IMG/VR virus record: IMGVR_UViG_2737471869_000024
Span: 1 to 25,955 of that record
Source of the DNA: a virus
Lineage: Duplodnaviria > Heunggongvirae > Uroviricota > Caudoviricetes
Length of the DNA: 25,955 bases
Strand: one strand, 5' to 3'
This document shows positions 1 through 9,943 of this stretch, in pieces. The notes beneath the pieces were generated by a model, which had not been told where the DNA came from, ran no database searches, and saw only the letters and a list, made by a program, of their open reading frames with translations. The position numbers and the translations under genes were made by a program. Position 1 is the first letter of the stretch; each line of letters starts with the position of its first letter.

Positions 1-1842
1 ATGACAGTTACAACAAAGTTCAGAAATGACATTAATGGCCTAAGAGCTATAGCTGTTATAAGTGTTGTTTTGTTTCATTTTTCATCTTCTATAATTCCAG
101 GCGGATTTATTGGTGTAGACGTGTTTTTCGTCATATCTGGATACTTGATGACATCAATTATATTCAGAGGGATAGAATCTAATTCTTTTTCGGTTATTGA
201 CTTCCTGAAAGCAAGGGCGAGACGTATAGTTCCTGCTCTCGTTGCAGTTGTATTCCTTACACTGATTATTGGTTATATGTTCTTTGAGCCTATGACATTA
301 CAGATCATAGGAAAACATTCTGCGGCAAGTCTAACATTTATTTCCAATATTATTTATCAGTCTGAATCAGGTTATTTTGATGATACATCAAAGCAAAAAT
401 TTTTACTGCATACATGGTCGCTATCAGTTGAATGGCAATTCTATATAATTTACCCGATAGTGTTACTTGCACTGTCAAAGATATTGTCAATAAAAAATCT
501 TAAAATATTTGTTGTTGCGATTGCTGTTGTTTCTTTTGCATGGTGCATTTACATAACCAGAACTGATCCCGTGTCATCATACTTCAGCATCGCATCAAGA
601 GGTTGGGAAATGATGCTGGGAGGCATTGCTTTTCTGTTCCCGTTTAAAGGTAGCGATAAATCAAGACGAGTTTTGGAATCAGCAGGGCTAATATTGATCG
701 CGCTGTCTCTCGCGTTCATGAGCGAAAGCTTGGCGTGGCCTGGCTACATTGCGTTTATTCCAGTATTCGGGGCCTATATCTGCATTCTTGCTGACAATAA
801 AAGAACCATTCTTTCTGGTAAGATCATTGGAAAGCTTGGGCTCTGGTCCTATTCAATATACTTGATCCACTGGCCGGTAATCGTCTTTTGCGAGAAGACG
901 GGAATTGAGTTAAATATTTTCTGGTATCTGGCTGGTGTAGTGTCAGCCTCAGCACTACTTTATAGCCTTGTAGAGAAGCGTCGTGGTTATGGATGGGGAT
1001 TGCTTTTCTGTTATTGTGTATGTCTCGCAGCCGCTTTGTATGTCAATGTCGACGGGGTAAGTAGTCGCATTAAGAATCCTGATTACCATCTTAATAAAGA
1101 CCTGTTCCGCCGGGCTTACGAAGGACATTTATGGATGCAGCCTGGAGAGAATGTAGACTACTTCAACGCTACAGAAAAAGACTTTGACTACATCATACTT
1201 GGTGACAGCCATGCAAGACACTATTTCGCTTTCTTCAAACAAAGCGGTCTTAAAGTAGCATCGCTAGCTGCGGATGGTTGTAAAGTTACAAAGCATTTTA
1301 TGGGGCCGCTAAACTATTCTGAAAAACTCAGAAAGATTTGCGAAGGAAGATATAAGAAGGCCGTTGAATTCATTAATGCCCATCCTGGCAAGAAAGTCGT
1401 ATGGTTGCAAGCGTGGTATACTGGAAAGGTTGGAAACCCGCTAACGACTGACAATTCTTATAAAAATGATTTCATCAGTGAAATGAAATATTTTCTTGAT
1501 GATATTAAAGGCTCTAACAGCCAGATATATATTGTTGGTGATACCCAGGGAAGCAAGGAAATCATGTATCAATGCCTGGCATCACAAGACCTTCCTATTA
1601 ATAAATTATTCAGAAAATGCAATGAGTTTCAGGATTATATAGAGCCTGCAATGAATAGCAGATTTAAAATATTTGCTGAGCAATATCAAAAAGTTCATTT
1701 CGTTGACCCTAGCCCAGCAATATGCAGTGATGGCAAATGTAGAGTGGTTGATGGAGATATGCCTGTTTACACGGATAACTCTCATCTTACAAAGGTATGG
1801 TCAGTTAAGGTTGGTGAATATATCTTTAGCAAGATAAAGTAG
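1..1842 (+). CDS. O-antigen acyltransferase: N-terminal membrane acyltransferase-3 domain fused to C-terminal SGNH hydrolase domain (OafA/Oac-like lysogenic conversion enzyme)
   Basis: 613 aa ORF. The N-terminal ~350 aa are highly hydrophobic with multiple predicted TM helices and the acyltransferase-3 signature near the N-terminus (NGLRAIAVISVVLFHF). The C-terminal ~250 aa carry a GDSH block (ILGDSHARHY) and a distal D-x-x-H block (TDNSHLT), typical of SGNH hydrolases. The ATG is at window position 1, so no upstream context is visible and the start is unverified. A terminator hairpin follows directly. Confidence 0.8.
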   Translation: MTVTTKFRNDINGLRAIAVISVVLFHFSSSIIPGGFIGVDVFFVISGYLMTSIIFRGIESNSFSVIDFLKARARRIVPALVAVVFLTLIIGYMFFEPMTLQIIGKHSAASLTFISNIIYQSESGYFDDTSKQKFLLHTWSLSVEWQFYIIYPIVLLALSKILSIKNLKIFVVAIAVVSFAWCIYITRTDPVSSYFSIASRGWEMMLGGIAFLFPFKGSDKSRRVLESAGLILIALSLAFMSESLAWPGYIAFIPVFGAYICILADNKRTILSGKIIGKLGLWSYSIYLIHWPVIVFCEKTGIELNIFWYLAGVVSASALLYSLVEKRRGYGWGLLFCYCVCLAAALYVNVDGVSSRIKNPDYHLNKDLFRRAYEGHLWMQPGENVDYFNATEKDFDYIILGDSHARHYFAFFKQSGLKVASLAADGCKVTKHFMGPLNYSEKLRKICEGRYKKAVEFINAHPGKKVVWLQAWYTGKVGNPLTTDNSYKNDFISEMKYFLDDIKGSNSQIYIVGDTQGSKEIMYQCLASQDLPINKLFRKCNEFQDYIEPAMNSRFKIFAEQYQKVHFVDPSPAICSDGKCRVVDGDMPVYTDNSHLTKVWSVKVGEYIFSKIK

Positions 1843-1872: not shown

Positions 1873-3675
1873 TTATATCACCATATATCTGAAGCTTGCT
1901 CCGCCTGCAGCTGGAGAACCTGACTGCGTAGCAAGGACAAGACTTCCGTTTGATTGACTTAAAACATATGCATTTGCTGCTGCAGCTGAAGCATTTGCTG
2001 GGTGAATCACAACTTGTGAATAAGGTGTTATATTTTCATCAACTAGTGTTGCTGAAGCTACACCACTCAATCCATTGAATGACTTCATCACCATCTTTTC
2101 AGTTGCAGAAAGAAGGACGTTTCTTATTGTAAATGTACCTCCTCCAGTTGGGTTTAGCTTTGGAATGAGTGCACTTGTTACGGTTGTAAGATTGCAATTT
2201 GTCAGGACAAGATTATTTTGATAACTGGTAACCTGTGCAATACCTGAATTAACAACAGTGGCATTATTCACGGTGTTATCTGTAGCACCATCCGATTGGT
2301 TAACACCACTTTGTCCTGCAGCATTAATATAAGCTGAAAGAACTCTGGTATTTGCCGATCCTGCCGCAAAGTTAATACCGTTTTGCCCGCAAGTATTAAC
2401 ATAAACACTCTCAATTGTGGATCCTGTTGTTGGCAGTCCAGCATGTCCAAAGTTAATACCGTGGAAAAATTGCGTGTTGGTAGATATCAACTTTCCTGCC
2501 ATGCTCCAGCGGCAATCAAAACCAATGCCTGATGCTGATGCAAGATCCACAGATGCATAAAGCAAACGGTTATAATCACCACTAAATTGAATACCAGAAT
2601 AAGCGTCATCACCAGAAGCGCCTTGTGCATGCCCTAGTGCCGCAATACTTCTATTAGTTTTGTAAATATAAAACGCTTCATGCCCCCACGATTCAATCCG
2701 ATCAACGATAAACTTTGAGTAATGGCACTGATAGAAAAACAGGCAACCAGAGCCGTCATTGCGGATTCCATCTGGTGATGGTGCACTTATAAAAGTGCGA
2801 GGGTAGTAATGGTCATGGACATAATGAGCGTAAAAATCTACGTTCTGACACTCTGTCAGATAGACAAGATGGGTTCCAATCTGTCCTGATTGTCCTGCTT
2901 TATTACCATCAATCTCATTAATGTGAATTATTAGACCAGAGTTATTACCTGCTGCGTAAAGTAATCTGTCAAAGTCGACACATCCAGACGGTAATTTGAG
3001 CTTCCCCTTTACAATCACTTTTTTTGCTGAAGAAAGGTTGAGATTTTTTGCAACGAGAGTAAACCCTTCGGGAACAATCAGCATACCTGTATCGTCAATC
3101 ATCTTCTGAGCTGAGATTGATGATTCAACTTCGCTCACAGCTCCCCAATCTGCAACTGTAAGATTCTCTGCATTTTTTTCATGCTGAGTCCTTTTTACTG
3201 CTCCGGTATAAGGTTGAATAACAGGTATCATTGCATCTCCGTCGCTGATACCTGCACCAATCAAATCTGCAACAGTGTGACCAGGACAAAGACCTATTAA
3301 TGAGGCTCCATCATCACCAGACAACTCCTGTCTTAGCTGATCTGGATCATACTTCAACACGTTTGGATAGTTGAACTGCTGTGTACCATAAGCATCGTAC
3401 ACAGCCATAGAATGGCCTTGCACGGTAACGAATTTGGCAATCTGTCCGTTATATACAGGGTAACCAGCAGCGTTAATGATGATTGGTTGCGAAACAGGAA
3501 CGTGAGAGCCGTCTTCATTCTCCACATAAACCTGAATCTGGTTTTCAGGATTTACCGGGTCAGTGTCAATTTTACCGATATAAATTTTGCCATTGGCTAC
3601 GGCTTTAAAAGAACGCGCCATAGTGAAGAGTTGCGAAGGCATGCTTACCACAACATTTGCGGTGATATCTGTCAT
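1873..3675 (-). CDS. Tailspike protein (P22 gp9-type N-terminal head-binding domain fused to a different receptor-binding/O-antigen-cleaving beta-helix domain)
   Basis: 600 aa. The first ~110 residues ([46 protein letters not shown]...NVLKYDPDQ) closely match the P22 tailspike head-binding domain as I recall it. The remainder is Gly/Ser/Asn/Thr-rich and beta-helix-like but does not resemble the P22 receptor domain. GGAG RBS upstream. Last gene of the virion module. Confidence 0.9.
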
Positions 3676-3776: not shown

Positions 3777-4712
3777 TCAGTAGTTATGTACTGAAGGAGG
3801 TAATTCTTTATTCTTAAGTCTCATCCATGCGGAAAGATTCGTTGGTCCGTCTGGCTCATTGATATCAACATCTCGTGTGTGGTTTATTAAAACGTCTCTC
3901 GCCATTCCGATAACATACGAGAATTCATGACCGTAGTCGTAGCATCTGCCGGAATAGTTCGATTGAATTTGTTTTAGCGCCGGATACAGTTCGCGGAATA
4001 ATGCCTGTGAGCGGTTGGCATAATCCCATAACCATACAAGGCTGTTTGCTTCTTTTGCAGAAAGCTCGTTGGTTCTCTTCTCTTGTTTTCCAATGAACTC
4101 ACCTTCAAGTGGAACTCGAGCTGCAAGTGATAGTGCTTCGGTAAACTGCTCATCACTGATTTCTTTGTACGAACATCCAAAATGGGATTTTAGTGACGAC
4201 CACATGGTGATCATCGCCTTAGCCTGTTTTTCTTTTGGCAGAGACTGACCGCGACTCATGACGAGTTGTTTAATGGCTTCCTGCTGTTCAGTGGTGATTT
4301 TACCCGGCAACGCCTTTTTAGCTTTGCGTGGGTTAAATACATGACCTTTAGTCCAGTAGTCATGCAGCACGCTAAAGCATTCTTCCTGGTACTGAATCAG
4401 TTTATCACGGATGTCAGCACGAACTTTCTCAGGGTTGATGCTGAACAGCCATCCATTTAACTTCTTCAGCGGGATGCATAAAAGCTTACGTAACTTGCCA
4501 TCAGCAGCAACCATAGAGATATCTCTACAGTTGAATTTGTCCTTCATTTTACGCAACTTAACAGATTGACCAGTCCAGTCGATACCAATGTTTTCCACAA
4601 TTTGACGCATCGCTACATAAGTCACTCCGGCAGCCATAGCGGTTAAAATCTGCTGACCATTGAAAGGCACGTAAGAGGTGTTCACTGCTTCTAAAATTGC
4701 TATACTATTCAT
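3777..4712 (-). CDS. ant: Antirepressor Ant (immI region)
   Basis: The protein from the internal ATG at 4712 ([30 protein letters not shown]...) matches the P22 Ant N-terminus as I recall it. GGAG-type RBS upstream of that ATG. The supplied ORF extends 22 codons further upstream, which is probably not translated. Confidence 0.9.
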
Positions 4713-4780
4713 GTTGGTTTTTCTCCACGAATTTACCGACAACCGAAGCCCTGACTGTTCCAGCAGTTGGGGCTTCAACT

Positions 4781-5035: not shown

Positions 5036-5275
5036 GTGGCTAGAAACGATCCACAATTTAACGTAAGAATGCCAAGTGAAATCAAGCAGCAGCTTACTCA
5101 CATTGCGGCAACAAACAGGCGCTCTATCAATGCTGAAATCATAGCTGCAATACAGCTATGGATTAAGATTAACAGAGAAAAGGTCATACCATCGACATCT
5201 CAAGATCTCACAAAAACAGAGAAGGAAGCAATGGATATTGCAATTAGCGTACTTAAGAAGATTCGAGGCCAATAA
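5036..5275 (+). CDS. mnt: Mnt-like ribbon-helix-helix repressor (divergent variant)
   Basis: 79 aa with a GTG start preceded by AGGAGA. The N-terminus MARNDPQFNVRMPSEIKQQL resembles P22 Mnt (MARDDPHFNFRMP...), but the DNA-contacting beta-strand (His to Gln) and the whole C-terminal half differ. It is divergent from arc, as in P22 immI. Confidence 0.8.
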   Translation: MARNDPQFNVRMPSEIKQQLTHIAATNRRSINAEIIAAIQLWIKINREKVIPSTSQDLTKTEKEAMDIAISVLKKIRGQ

Positions 5276-5622
5276 TGAGCAGTAAGGAGCAATACTTAAA
5301 AGTTACTTTTGAGTCTTTTAGTAATTACTTGACTTCATTCAAAAAAACTTATGTATGCCCAATATGCAGCAATACAAACTGGACTCTTTTAGCACCGGAG
5401 CATCTTAAAAAAGATGATGGTGTTGAAGTTATAGGCCCATCCATACCAGGTAAAAGCTTGCCTAATAATCCTGTTAATCAAGATACTTATAGCAACGATA
5501 GTCTTAACATGGTAGCCATGCAATGCACCACTTGCGGTTTCTTCCACTTTTTTAGTTTAAACAAAGTTAGTGAAAATATCTCTTCTGGAAAATTCGTAAA
5601 GGGTGATGGAGATAATGTTTGA
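5275..5622 (+). CDS. Hypothetical Cys4 zinc-ribbon protein (cargo gene, translationally coupled to mnt)
   Basis: 115 aa. Its ATG overlaps the mnt TAA (TAATG), with GAGG 7 nt upstream. Two CxxC pairs (C28/C31, C84/C87). The region looks AT-rich compared with the flanking structural genes. No recognisable family. Confidence 0.6.
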   Translation: MSSKEQYLKVTFESFSNYLTSFKKTYVCPICSNTNWTLLAPEHLKKDDGVEVIGPSIPGKSLPNNPVNQDTYSNDSLNMVAMQCTTCGFFHFFSLNKVSENISSGKFVKGDGDNV

Positions 5623-6115
5623 CCAACATGTTCACAATAAATCACCTAGTATTTATGGAGATGCTCAAAGCCAACATGAAAACCTTGACTTTGACAAATC
5701 GTTATGGAGTTCAATAGAAAACGCTAAATATTCAGAGTATTACAGACCAACTGGCAGAAATCCGTCAAAGGAACCACAAATATTTAGCCTACAAGAAGAG
5801 CAACACAAAGAAGAAGGTCGTGATACCGTGAAACGTTTAGAGCTATACGGGGTTGCAGTTGCTATCATTGGTTCTATCGTTGCCGCCACATGGACGATTC
5901 GAGGCACTATAGATGATAAAGTTGAATCATCACGACAAGAGCTAACAGGAAACATCCAAACCAGTAAGGCAGAGATAATGGCTACTATCCAAAACAACCA
6001 ATCAGTATTACAGTCAAGGATTGATAACACTGATCAAAAATTAGACTCGACAAACCAATCTCTTTATAAGGTATTGGCTATATTAGAGTCTCAAAAAGAC
6101 AAACGTTCTCAATAG
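5606..6115 (+). CDS. Hypothetical single-pass membrane protein with C-terminal coiled-coil-like domain (cargo gene)
   Basis: About 166-170 aa. Possible starts are GTG 5603, ATG 5606 and ATG 5615, all overlapping the end of the upstream ORF. One strongly hydrophobic segment (LELYGVAVAIIGSIVAATWTI) is flanked by K/R. The C-terminal ~70 aa are Q/S/T/N-rich with heptad-like spacing. Confidence 0.6.
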   Translation: MEIMFDQHVHNKSPSIYGDAQSQHENLDFDKSLWSSIENAKYSEYYRPTGRNPSKEPQIFSLQEEQHKEEGRDTVKRLELYGVAVAIIGSIVAATWTIRGTIDDKVESSRQELTGNIQTSKAEIMATIQNNQSVLQSRIDNTDQKLDSTNQSLYKVLAILESQKDKRSQ

Positions 6116-6136
6116 TTTCTTGATTTATTACCTATA

Positions 6137-6171
6137 GCTGCATGATTGATGTCTGTTGAAAATCATGCAGC
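6137..6171 (+). repeat. Perfect 11-bp inverted repeat (GCTGCATGATT ... AATCATGCAGC) with 13-nt spacer in the intergenic gap
   Basis: Read directly from the sequence; lies between the second and third cargo ORFs, 25 bp upstream of the AAGGAG RBS of the third. No clear U-tract follows. Confidence 0.4.
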
Positions 6172-6195
6172 ATTGATAAATCTAAGGAGATCGGC

Positions 6196-6516
6196 ATGTA
6201 CATATCGCTCTCTACCATTTTTTTCATCTGCTTAGCTATTTGGCTTTTAAGAATATGGCAGGATTGCTCTGTCAGCCATGCTGCTGCGGTGAGAAATAAA
6301 AACGCCCTCATAAAAGAAGCTGAAAACGTTGTCTTATCAATGGATCACCTTTCATGGACCGAGATGACTACAGGGCAACAAGAGGTTTATGAGTGTGCGA
6401 TTGAGCGGTTAAGGCTGCTTAAATCGTACAAAAAGAACCACGCTCCCGACTCATTCCCATTCCTGAAAGAATGGCCGAGATGGTATGACCCGAAAAAAGC
6501 AACCATCAACCGCTAA
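6196..6516 (+). CDS. Hypothetical small membrane-anchored protein (cargo gene)
   Basis: 106 aa with a strong RBS (AAGGAG, 7 nt spacing). N-terminal hydrophobic segment MYISLSTIFFICLAIWLLRIW, either a signal anchor or a signal peptide (possible AxA-like site SHA-AAV). The stop codon lies 8 bp from the convergent gp16 stop. Confidence 0.6.
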   Translation: MYISLSTIFFICLAIWLLRIWQDCSVSHAAAVRNKNALIKEAENVVLSMDHLSWTEMTTGQQEVYECAIERLRLLKSYKKNHAPDSFPFLKEWPRWYDPKKATINR

Positions 6517-8531: not shown

Positions 8532-9943
8532 TCCACCGTAAATTGAATGCCTGATTTTGAGGTATATGATCCAACCTGATTCCGTGGTTCTCCTGAAGGT
8601 GTCGAATCTTGTGCTGGCGCTGCGTCAGTATTCATTGACATATACCGCTTAACGGCACTCCCCAATGATTCACCTTTTTTAACATCCAACCCCAATATCT
8701 GACCGCCATTACGCGATTGTCCAGGGTTGCCATTCGCGCTCATCCACTCAGCTTTAAACTCATTAAACTGCGCGTTTCGTCGCTCAAGGTTTGCCATTGC
8801 ATCAAGCCATCTTGCGACCGTCTCAGGGTTATCCATGTCAGTTGGCGCACCCTGACGAACGATCTCAACGTCTTTATCCGTTGCTGGGCCGGGAGGTAGG
8901 AATTTAAGGACCTGACTGTTAACAAGGGCATTTTGGCGAATGCGCAAATCACGCAATGTTGTATCGCTTCCGGTAAGTTTTGCGAACATGTTCTGTGCGT
9001 TACCGAACAAACCTGTCGTTGGTTTTTCTGCTCTGAACTGTTGAGCAAGCGCACTCATAGAATTGGCTGAGTTTGATGATGCTGTAGCATTGTTTACAGC
9101 CGTCTCGATGCCTTTTTCCATGTTTACTGACAGCTTAGGTGCTTCGCTAATCAACTGCTGAGCCTTTTCCTGCGCTTGCTGCATCTTAAACCCGAACTCT
9201 TGCTGATCCAGAGCCAAGCGTTGTGCTGCGATATTGTGCCCAGTCATTGCTGACTGATAGGAAAGGTTTTGCCCTCTCGCCTGAAGTGCCTCGCCAGCCT
9301 GATTGCTGCGGATTGTCTCTGCCAGTCTGCCTCGGTCAATCTCACGACCAGCCATCTTGTCCTGAACAGCAAACGCCTTTTCTGGTCCAAGCGCACCGAG
9401 AGACATAGTAGTCAGCATGTGTGATAGCTGCTCTGGATTCTGGATACCTGTCTGAATCATCCAGTCAGCATTCGCCCCCACGCGATTTAACCTGTCCTTG
9501 TTGTCAGTAATGAATTTACTGTAGGCTTCCGGTCCCTGGGAAAGAGCGACGTTAGCCCTCATGGCTAAATCGCCCATATCGTTGCGTTGCTGCTCATTAA
9601 GACCGGAAAACGCCTGTTGTGCCTGTGCAACAAACGCTGGATTTTCCTGGGCAAACTTAAATAGTCCAGATGGATCACCAGAAGCCCATGCATCAGCGTG
9701 AACCTTATTGAACGCACTAATAGCTTTCTGTTGCTGTTCCTGATTGTAAATATCAGCAACTCCAGCCAGACCACGTAACGCGGTCAGACCAATGTTATTT
9801 GCACCTGAGCGAGCCAGTTCATTGTTTTCGCGGATCAGACCAAGCGTTGCGTTAATGTCGCTTGCCTTTGGCGCATTCTCATTTTGCGTACCGATGCCAG
9901 CCAGAAAACCACCAGAATTAATACCCTGTTGCCACGTAGCCAT
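8528..9943 (-). CDS. Ejection protein, P22 gp20 homolog
   Basis: 471 aa, the size I recall for P22 gp20. Synteny between gp7 and gp16. Confidence 0.8.

Follow-up and report, generated by a model that had tools for sequence, protein, structure and literature searches.

A predicted acyltransferase gene convergent with a tailspike gene

The DNA analyzed here is the record IMGVR_UViG_2737471869_000024 of a tailed virus (Caudoviricetes) in IMG/VR, positions 1 to 25,955, and the whole of this 25,955-nucleotide stretch is referred to below as the window. Our subject is the gene at its left end, predicted to encode a membrane acyltransferase in which an AT3 domain is fused to an SGNH domain, together with the tailspike gene that faces it. 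The acyltransferase gene (positions 1 to 1842, + strand; stop codon TAG at 1840 to 1842) was identified by open reading frame (ORF) calling, by Pfam and PHROG matches and by an AlphaFold2 (AF2) model. It comprises 613 codons, and its ATG starts at the first base of the window. Since copies of the gene in Escherichia coli Tig228 (locus L001) and in the Logan contigs L003 and L004 have an in-frame TAA directly 5' of the ATG and an AGGA sequence 8 nucleotides (nt) upstream, we regard the ORF as complete; it is intact in all copies seen, which come from at least 17 loci. The G+C content of the gene is 0.389, compared with 0.48 to 0.52 in the coat, portal and terminase genes and 0.472 in the whole window, and that of a 313-bp leader preceding the gene in other copies is 0.365, compared with approximately 0.50 in the structural genes. 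Gene and leader thus have the foreign composition of a moron.

A sequence-only reading of the window had described a long, AT-rich gene lying immediately beside the tailspike gene, convergent with it and sharing a bidirectional terminator with it. All of this holds: the gene is a complete 613-amino-acid ORF of 39% G+C, only 30 nt separate its stop codon from that of the tailspike gene on the opposite strand, and between the two lies a hairpin at positions 1845 to 1870, found by scanning and folding, with a significant fold on both strands. The hairpin has the sequence AAAAAGCCTCT-ACTC-AGAGGCTTTTT, and its predicted folding energies are -14.7 (+ strand) and -14.3 kcal/mol (- strand), with z scores of -4.5 and -3.7; 0 of 200 shuffled sequences reached these values. 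Because the stem folds on both strands, with an A-run on its 5' side paired with a T-run on its 3' side, it looks like a two-way intrinsic terminator common to both genes. On the + strand, a further T-rich stretch, TTTTTCTTT, follows 3' of the stem, and on the - strand there is only TTTTT, inside the predicted stem; the - strand direction would be the weaker one. A diverged copy of the locus, L009, retains the hairpin with a longer stem and another loop, and convergent gene pairs in relatives each have a strong intergenic hairpin of their own, of unrelated sequence. In lambdoid late transcription, antiterminated transcripts may pass through such a hairpin, and in lytic growth the shared hairpin may be read through by late transcripts that are antisense to the acyltransferase gene.

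Upstream of the gene, the leader of the L003 copy contains a promoter-like site approximately 100 nt from the start codon (GTGCCA, 16 nt, TG-CATAAT, i.e., a weak extended -10 element). The Dam/OxyR phase-variation signature, consisting of four GATC sites in OxyR half-sites, was sought in the 313-bp leader and not found; the leader contains a GATC site at -43 and, except in L003, another at -90, with approximately 1.2 expected by chance.

Predicted domains and conserved residues of the acyltransferase

The same reading had called the gene product a fusion of a membrane acyltransferase and an SGNH domain, and profile searches agree, with both domains scoring far above their Pfam cut-offs. Acyl_transf_3 (PF01757) matches residues 9 to 319 (E value of 1.2e-29; 103.9 bits versus a cut-off of 31) in an alignment that spans profile positions 2 to 320 of 326, and the SGNH profile PF19040, described as "fused to AT3 domains," matches residues 394 to 601 (E value of 2.8e-26; 93.2 bits versus a cut-off of 27). 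From end to end, the protein matches PHROG 6705, "O-antigen acetylase" (1.4e-147). Based on Pfam, motifs and alignment, the transmembrane AT3 domain is assigned to residues 9 to 319 (positions 25 to 957, + strand, as for the other domains), with helices 1 to 10 extending to approximately residue 325. From the AF2 model and hydropathy, it is predicted to be followed by an eleventh transmembrane helix (residues 331 to 351) and a structured periplasmic linker, or "SGNH extension" (approximately residues 352 to 395), both encoded at positions 991 to 1185. The putative periplasmic SGNH domain (positions 1180 to 1839) is delineated by PF19040, by its motifs and by the structure of the OafB periplasmic domain (PDB 6SE1); it contains Ser403 in a GDS motif, Asp592 and His595 in a DNSH motif, and Cys pairs.

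The AF2 model, built with the family alignment, has a mean predicted local distance difference test score (pLDDT) of 93.8 and a predicted template modeling score of 0.85. It shows ten long helices in residues 9 to 325, the eleventh helix at residues 331 to 351, a structured linker of approximately 40 residues and an alpha/beta domain. Hydropathy peaks agree with the ten-helix core, and a further peak covers residues 329 to 354. The eleventh helix and the linker would place the SGNH domain in the periplasm, and the three Cys pairs conserved in the C-terminal domain (427/447, 525/540 and 575/580) fit an oxidizing compartment.

An alignment of 76 homologues that are 39 to 62% identical has 54 invariant columns. 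Among these are the AT3 motifs R15-X10-H26 in helix 1, FFVISG at residues 42 to 47 and the RXXR motif R72ARR75. The fusion-specific motif GGFIGVD (residues 34 to 40, loop 1-2) and S115 (loop 3-4) are also present; G35, D40, S115, S403 and H595 are invariant, and F36, E325 and D592 are conserved in at least 90% of the homologues. The AT3 and fusion motifs follow the definitions of PMC7448272, in which the residues required in the Salmonella acetyltransferase OafA were determined by mutagenesis, and every residue whose replacement abolishes OafA activity has a counterpart here, namely, R15, H26, G35, D40, R72, R75, S115, E325, S403 and H595. D592 corresponds to OafA D587, whose replacement by Ala merely lowers activity, with approximately 10% left (PMC7448272). 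In the direction from OafA to the present protein, and with counterparts set by the published residues and motifs and not by direct sequence alignment, R14/H25 correspond to R15/H26, G34, F35 and D39 to G35, F36 and D40, R69/R72 to R72/R75, S112 to S115, E325 to E325, and S412/D587/H590 to S403/D592/H595.

The Ser-Asp-His triad is found at GDS 401 to 403 (block I) and DNSH 592 to 595 (block V), which align to the same blocks of 6SE1. The family profile matches 6SE1 at 8e-5, with blocks I and V and the C-terminal Cys pair aligned. A single-sequence search of PDB gave only spurious matches of residues 567 to 608 to designed "Cake" propellers, and by sequence, 6SE1 was therefore reached only through the family profile. 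In a Foldseek search with the model, 6SE1 was the top match (E value of 5.9e-6; template modeling score of 0.61, target normalized; approximately 15% identity), followed by PatB (1.5e-3), with the OatA SGNH domain 5UFY far lower (E value of 0.26); no solved AT3 domain was retrieved by Foldseek. Judged by its sequence and its model, the protein thus has all the sequence and structural features expected of an AT3-SGNH carbohydrate O-acetyltransferase. Between the L009 gene and that of the window, 52 codon differences are synonymous and 15 are nonsynonymous, which indicates that the acyltransferase is under purifying selection.

The tailspike and its receptor-binding domain

The convergent gene (positions 1873 to 3675, - strand) encodes a P22-type tailspike of 600 amino acids, as judged by Pfam, PDB sequence matches, AF2 and Foldseek. 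Its head-binding domain comprises residues 1 to 113 (positions 3337 to 3675, - strand; Pfam Head_binding, 4.7e-66), and the PDB sequence matches are to the N termini of the Sf6 and P22 tailspikes. Beyond the tailspike gene, the window contains ant, arc and mnt homologues and, on the - strand, P22-type ejection, head, portal, terminase and lysis genes. Since these P22-type genes lie on the - strand, the tailspike gene closes the late operon and converges on the acyltransferase gene.

The receptor-binding domain (approximately residues 116 to 600; positions 1873 to 3330, - strand) is modeled by AF2 as a right-handed beta-helix with a pLDDT of 91. Its top Foldseek match is the Sf6 tailspike (1.6e-9), followed by those to the HK620 tailspike and CBA120 TSP3. 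The fold search was also meant to point to a particular glycan, for example through a match to a pseudaminic-acid depolymerase, but gave only a generic beta-helix tailspike match. The best full-length PHROG of the tailspike is labeled "tail spike protein with colonic acid degradation activity." The receptor-binding domain belongs to a rare family, with 41 proteins (P0121 to P0161; relatives of positions 1876 to 3330, - strand) in a set of 5.8 billion proteins. Members are carried on three different N-terminal anchors, i.e., the P22 Head_binding domain, Tail_spike_N and the T7 tail fiber N terminus, and their hosts include Escherichia, Enterobacter and Providencia.

A slot for glycan-modifying genes at the prophage end

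In the E. coli Tig228 chromosome, the tRNA-Arg gene argW is followed by intS, 313 bp, the acyltransferase gene, the convergent tailspike gene and a decayed P22-like prophage. The same order from argW to the tailspike gene is found in L001, L021, L022, L137, L141, L142, L144 and L145, and in two other chromosomal contexts, near dacD and the bio genes, the acyltransferase gene is the outermost gene of the prophage. The gene thus lies where a conversion module is expected: terminally in the prophage, outside the late operon and flanked by the integrase gene or attachment site on one side and by the tailspike gene on the other. In the same argW slot, E. coli EC23HZZ201 has yfdG (gtrA), yfdH (gtrB) and a glucosyltransferase gene after intS, followed by a convergent tailspike gene, and strain ERP001 has a gene for an AT3-only acyltransferase of 363 amino acids. 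The slot is therefore interchangeable with known O-antigen modification cassettes in sibling argW prophages.

Tailspikes with a homologous receptor-binding domain have a glycan-modifying neighbor in three of four distinct contexts. In L009, the neighbor is an AT3-SGNH gene 97.6% identical to the acyltransferase gene of the window. In the siphovirus-like prophage L010, gtrB/gtrC-type genes follow a tailspike gene with a related receptor domain, and in L011, from Enterobacter ludwigii, such a gene is followed by an AT3-only gene and an integrase gene. The fourth context, L023, is a Providencia tailspike with a 52%-identical receptor domain, which has ABC transporter genes in place of a glycan modifier. 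Seen from the enzyme, the four nearest acyltransferase clusters, from Morganella (62%), Enterobacter kobei (61%), Citrobacter (58%) and E. coli (51%), all adjoin prophage tailspikes, three in convergent orientation and one in the same direction. When species-representative genomes were scanned with the family alignment, only distant relatives, with at most 33% full-length identity, were among the matches listed, and the census of neighbors was based on the relatives in IMG/VR. A large adjacent ORF is present in 8 of the 11 closest of these (42 to 62% identity). Of 16 large neighbors in all IMG/VR relatives, Pfam assigned four to Tail_spike_N, two to Head_binding and one to the T7 tail fiber N terminus, and PHROG tail fiber or tailspike families match up to 8. 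Of all the computational evidence, this context in relatives lends the strongest support to the view that the acyltransferase belongs functionally with the tailspike.

A nearly clonal acyltransferase allele beside an exchangeable receptor-binding cassette

Among the window, Tig228, L003, L004, L021, L022 and ten further NCBI assemblies, the acyltransferase allele shows 0 to 3 differences in 1842 nt, and the Tig228 gene is nucleotide-identical to that of the window; the allele is almost clonal. The module is present in just one of 5426 complete RefSeq E. coli genomes. The view that the gene is very rare was nevertheless dropped, as 211 index blocks of the assembly collection contain the exact protein.

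The gene occurs in at least three chromosomal contexts, namely, argW-intS, bioA-ybhB and dacD-sbmC-yeeA. The window resembles the dacD-type locus L143, with a 100%-identical receptor-binding domain and the same local gene order. In the non-argW contexts, the last 60 to 84 nt of intS and the same 313-bp leader are retained upstream of the gene (positions 3627 to 4000 of L143 and 3604 to 4000 of L138), and this intS 3' scar shows that the cassette was transplanted by recombination from an argW-type phage. The argW prophage of Tig228 (NZ_CM196107.1, 1521049 to 1542737) is decayed, with an HNH gene, arc, two ejection genes and lysis genes left before dsdC; it keeps the acyltransferase gene and an intact tailspike gene.

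Among carriers, identity is 100% across the acyltransferase gene and the terminator and extends into approximately the last 15 nt of the tailspike gene. From position 1889/1890, the identity drops to approximately 55% at the nucleotide level up to approximately position 3180, and it is again at least 95% in the head-binding part (by approximately 3180 to 3280). These sharp recombination breakpoints bracket the receptor-binding domain. The resulting exchangeable receptor-binding cassette (positions 1890 to 3180, - strand) was delineated by a 100-nt identity profile, junction alignment and a census of alleles. A type A receptor domain is present in the window, in Tig228 and in 9 of the 10 further assemblies; a type B domain, with 57 to 58% amino acid identity to type A, in L003, L021, L022 and L141; and a type C domain, with 83% identity, in L009. 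We had considered that the acyltransferase and the receptor domain of the window move as one fixed unit, and this is ruled out by the occurrence of the same allele with the type B domain.

A predicted O-acetyltransferase that may act on the phage receptor

In our interpretation, the gene very probably encodes an inner-membrane, two-domain O-acyltransferase, most likely an O-acetyltransferase, of the OafA/OafB type, and is a low-G+C moron of a P22-like temperate phage. The enzyme most likely acetylates a surface sugar chain that serves as the phage receptor, and from its position and from precedent, we infer that it would alter the serotype or phage susceptibility of the lysogen. This proposed serotype conversion is supported by location and by analogy with known systems.

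In the lysogen, transcription of the gene may start at a putative promoter within the AT-rich 313-bp leader and stop at the shared hairpin. Following the acetyl relay from AT3 to SGNH modeled in work on OafA and OafB (PMC7448272), the ten-helix AT3 domain would bind cytoplasmic acetyl-coenzyme A through R15/H26 and R72/R75 and move the acetyl group across the membrane to the periplasmic face. There, the SGNH domain would be tethered by the eleventh helix and the structured linker, and its Ser403-Asp592-His595 triad would acetylate one particular hydroxyl in the repeat unit of a surface polysaccharide. The acceptor is most likely O-antigen, modified either before or after being joined to lipid A-core. 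The adjacent tailspike would bind and cleave this same glycan, and the acetyl group would hinder the tailspike sterically. Lysogens would then change serotype, resist the same or similar phages (superinfection exclusion) and escape the tailspikes of released virions.

Comparison with characterized and related systems

A precedent for the arrangement is gtrC of phage BTP1, which was shown experimentally to encode an O-antigen acetyltransferase of 640 amino acids and is convergent with the tailspike gene (PMC4413052). Protection against BTP1 requires BTP1 GtrC/OafB and is conferred by it alone (PMC4413052), and Sf6 Oac and PhiV10 are further precedents for conversion (PMC9558356). The claim of the sequence-only reading that P22-like phages place O-antigen modification genes at this position is borne out by BTP1 gtrC, by the gtr set of EC23HZZ201, by the AT3-only gene of ERP001 and by the neighbors in L010 and L011. 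Like BTP1 gtrC, the present gene is located terminally in a P22-like prophage and is convergent with a tailspike gene, and its leader resembles that of BTP1 in having no Dam/OxyR signature, in which most gtr operons differ (PMC4413052). Unlike in BTP1, the host is E. coli, the receptor-binding domain of the tailspike is unrelated, and no gtrA or gtrB remnants are found upstream of the gene. OafB, a family 2 GtrC of Salmonella and a rhamnose 2/3-O-acetyltransferase, shares with the present protein the order of AT3 domain, eleventh helix, linker and SGNH domain (613 versus 640 amino acids), the RXXR motif and the Ser-Asp-His triad, and the SGNH domain of OafB is the best fold and profile match of the present protein. 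However, the two proteins share 45% identity over residues 6 to 326 (AT3) only, and their SGNH halves cannot be aligned by BLAST. As identity within the OafB family is 77 to 99% (PMC4413052), the present protein is related to OafB but is not its orthologue, and since the host and the receptor-binding domain differ, the acceptor sugar is also expected to differ from that of OafB.

OafA, the abequose 2-O-acetyltransferase of Salmonella enterica serovar Typhimurium (O:5), has the same architecture with conserved Cys pairs. Its acceptor, abequose, does not occur in E. coli O136, and its gene is located in the chromosome away from the O-antigen cluster (PMC9558356), whereas the present gene is carried by a prophage. 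The closest homologues in phage records are those of the podophages vB_EcoP_PAS61 (56.7%) and Tyrion (46.1%) in PHROG 6705, which match over their full length, have the same two domains and adjoin a tailspike gene. PAS61 is a Uetakevirus (epsilon15-like) with an O146 host, and its acetylase gene is located downstream of a tailspike gene annotated for O146 and in the same direction, in contrast to the convergent arrangement here. No biochemical characterization of the PAS61 or Tyrion acetylase was found in the literature consulted. Sf6 Oac and OacB to OacD of Shigella flexneri phages, as well as gtrABC of P22 and E. coli argW prophages, occupy the same slot and follow the same logic of serotype conversion by blocking of the receptor. 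Oac-type enzymes consist of AT3 only, with approximately 330 amino acids and no SGNH domain, which the present enzyme has, and gtrABC adds glucose through a three-protein pathway, unlike the single enzyme here.

Alternative functions

The same kind of transferase could act on another glycan, such as a capsule or K antigen, colanic acid or enterobacterial common antigen, which would then be the true receptor of the tailspike. P22-like slots can adjoin capsule-directed tailspikes, as in CUS-3, which has a K1 endosialidase tailspike and presumably also carries a capsule O-acetyltransferase. In addition, the receptor-domain fold weakly matches capsule depolymerases, and the best full-length PHROG of the tailspike names colonic acid degradation, although that score may derive mostly from the head-binding domain. 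However, the top fold matches are to O-antigen tailspikes (Sf6, HK620 and CBA120 TSP3), the closest characterized enterobacterial enzymes of the same architecture, OafA and OafB, act on O-antigen, and the closest phage homologue adjoins a tailspike annotated as O146 binding. Given the closest characterized enzymes and the top fold matches, we consider another glycan to be less likely than O-antigen and, on the whole, unlikely. Transfer of a different acyl group, such as succinyl or propionyl, to the glycan is improbable. It is true that AT3 proteins include non-acetyl transferases, that the best NCBIfam match of the protein is to SucT (115.7 bits) and that there is a weak match to MdoC, a glucan succinylation protein; yet both matches are far under their cut-offs (1275 bits for SucT), and the phage-borne and O-antigen AT3-SGNH enzymes characterized to date are all acetyltransferases.

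An OatA-like enzyme that O-acetylates peptidoglycan would alter sensitivity to lysozyme or endolysin and not the receptor. OatA has the AT3-SGNH architecture, and PatB, the second-best fold match, is a peptidoglycan O-acetyltransferase; on the other hand, the OatA SGNH domain is a weak fold match compared with that of OafB, the long structured linker is a feature of OafA and OafB, and the gene is consistently found with tailspike genes and in the gtr slot, which speaks for the phage receptor as its target, so that a role in peptidoglycan modification seems very improbable. Hardly credible is a silent or decaying passenger gene without current function. The Tig228 prophage around the gene is indeed a degraded remnant, but the ORF is intact in every copy, the catalytic residues are conserved, and synonymous changes exceed nonsynonymous ones. 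Moreover, the gene and its leader are kept in the decayed prophage and across three integration sites, the pattern expected of a gene that is useful to the host.

Other points weigh against the proposed acetylation of the tailspike receptor as a whole. The window starts at the ATG of the gene, so the upstream region is known from other copies only, and the promoter call is a weak consensus match taken from the L003 copy of the leader and not from the window. The SGNH domain is only remotely similar to characterized ones (approximately 15% identity to 6SE1), and acceptor and acyl specificity are for this reason not readable from homology. The modeled receptor-domain fold is that of a generic beta-helix depolymerase, which does not separate O-antigen from capsule, and no relatives of the receptor-binding domain were found in 50,697 phage records. 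Lastly, because a single acyltransferase allele is paired with receptor domains just 57 to 58% identical to each other, the coupling of enzyme and tailspike is not one-to-one, and their specificities need not match.

A candidate substrate and the significance of the module

Tig228 belongs to serogroup O136, as it has pseudaminic-acid genes and the O136 wzx/wzy genes, and the O136 O-antigen contains Pse5Ac7Ac (PMC7685785). O136 accounts for 4 of the 5426 complete E. coli genomes, and the sole carrier of the module among the latter is one of these four (a chance of approximately 7 in 10,000). The pseudaminic-acid-containing O136 O-antigen is therefore a candidate substrate, as a lead only and not a result, since it comes from a single genome; this, too, counts against too firm a reading. 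We put forward with considerable doubt a joint scenario in which the enzyme O-acetylates the O136 O-antigen, or a small set of related ones, to give an undescribed variant, and in which the nearly invariant acyltransferase and the swapped receptor cassettes A, B and C record a live arms race over the receptor. The acetyl group would block one tailspike type, and another type would be recruited to the modified or a neighboring receptor, with the acyltransferase gene and the head-binding domain serving as homology arms.

A phage-borne AT3-SGNH acetyltransferase in a conversion slot is already of a well-known kind, to which the present gene adds another example, and there is nothing conceptually new in the acyltransferase system. 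The added interest is modest and lies in a fixed modifier beside an exchangeable cassette, in the intS scar recording transfer between phages and in the possible O136 substrate. O-antigen acetylation alters serotype, vaccine epitopes and phage host range. If our interpretation is correct, the gene would account for a variant form, in serology or phage typing, of a rare E. coli serogroup, which may be O136, and would add an E. coli example to the few characterized AT3-SGNH O-antigen acetyltransferases. As its acceptor-binding half is distant from those of OafA and OafB, the enzyme could also help to work out how SGNH domains choose their sugar. In addition, the fixed modifier gene, the exchangeable receptor domain of the tailspike and the integrase scar form a compact natural system for the reshuffling of receptor recognition and masking in temperate phages.

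A possible second variable slot in the prophage

A block of low G+C content (0.38 to 0.40) is located at positions 5036 to 6516 of the window, between immI and a gp16-like ejection gene and on the + strand, opposite to the late operon. It comprises a mnt/arc-like gene from the ORF list (5036 to 5275) and three ORFs without an assigned function, which encode 115 (5275 to 5622; phrog_4293), 170 (5603 to 6115; phrog_24865) and 106 (6196 to 6516; phrog_10450) amino acids. As the related prophage L022 has a SieA-domain gene at this position, the block may represent a second moron or an exclusion block. In L142, a gene for a 111-amino-acid Rap1a-domain protein (PF18602; positions 9304 to 9639) directly follows the mnt-like gene, where the window has the 115-amino-acid ORF, and because of this replacement, the slot adjacent to immI seems to hold variable cargo. 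The antirepressor ORF ant (3777 to 4778, - strand) is listed with 333 amino acids from a TTG start; since products of 292 to 302 amino acids are called in related prophages, the true start is probably an internal ATG.

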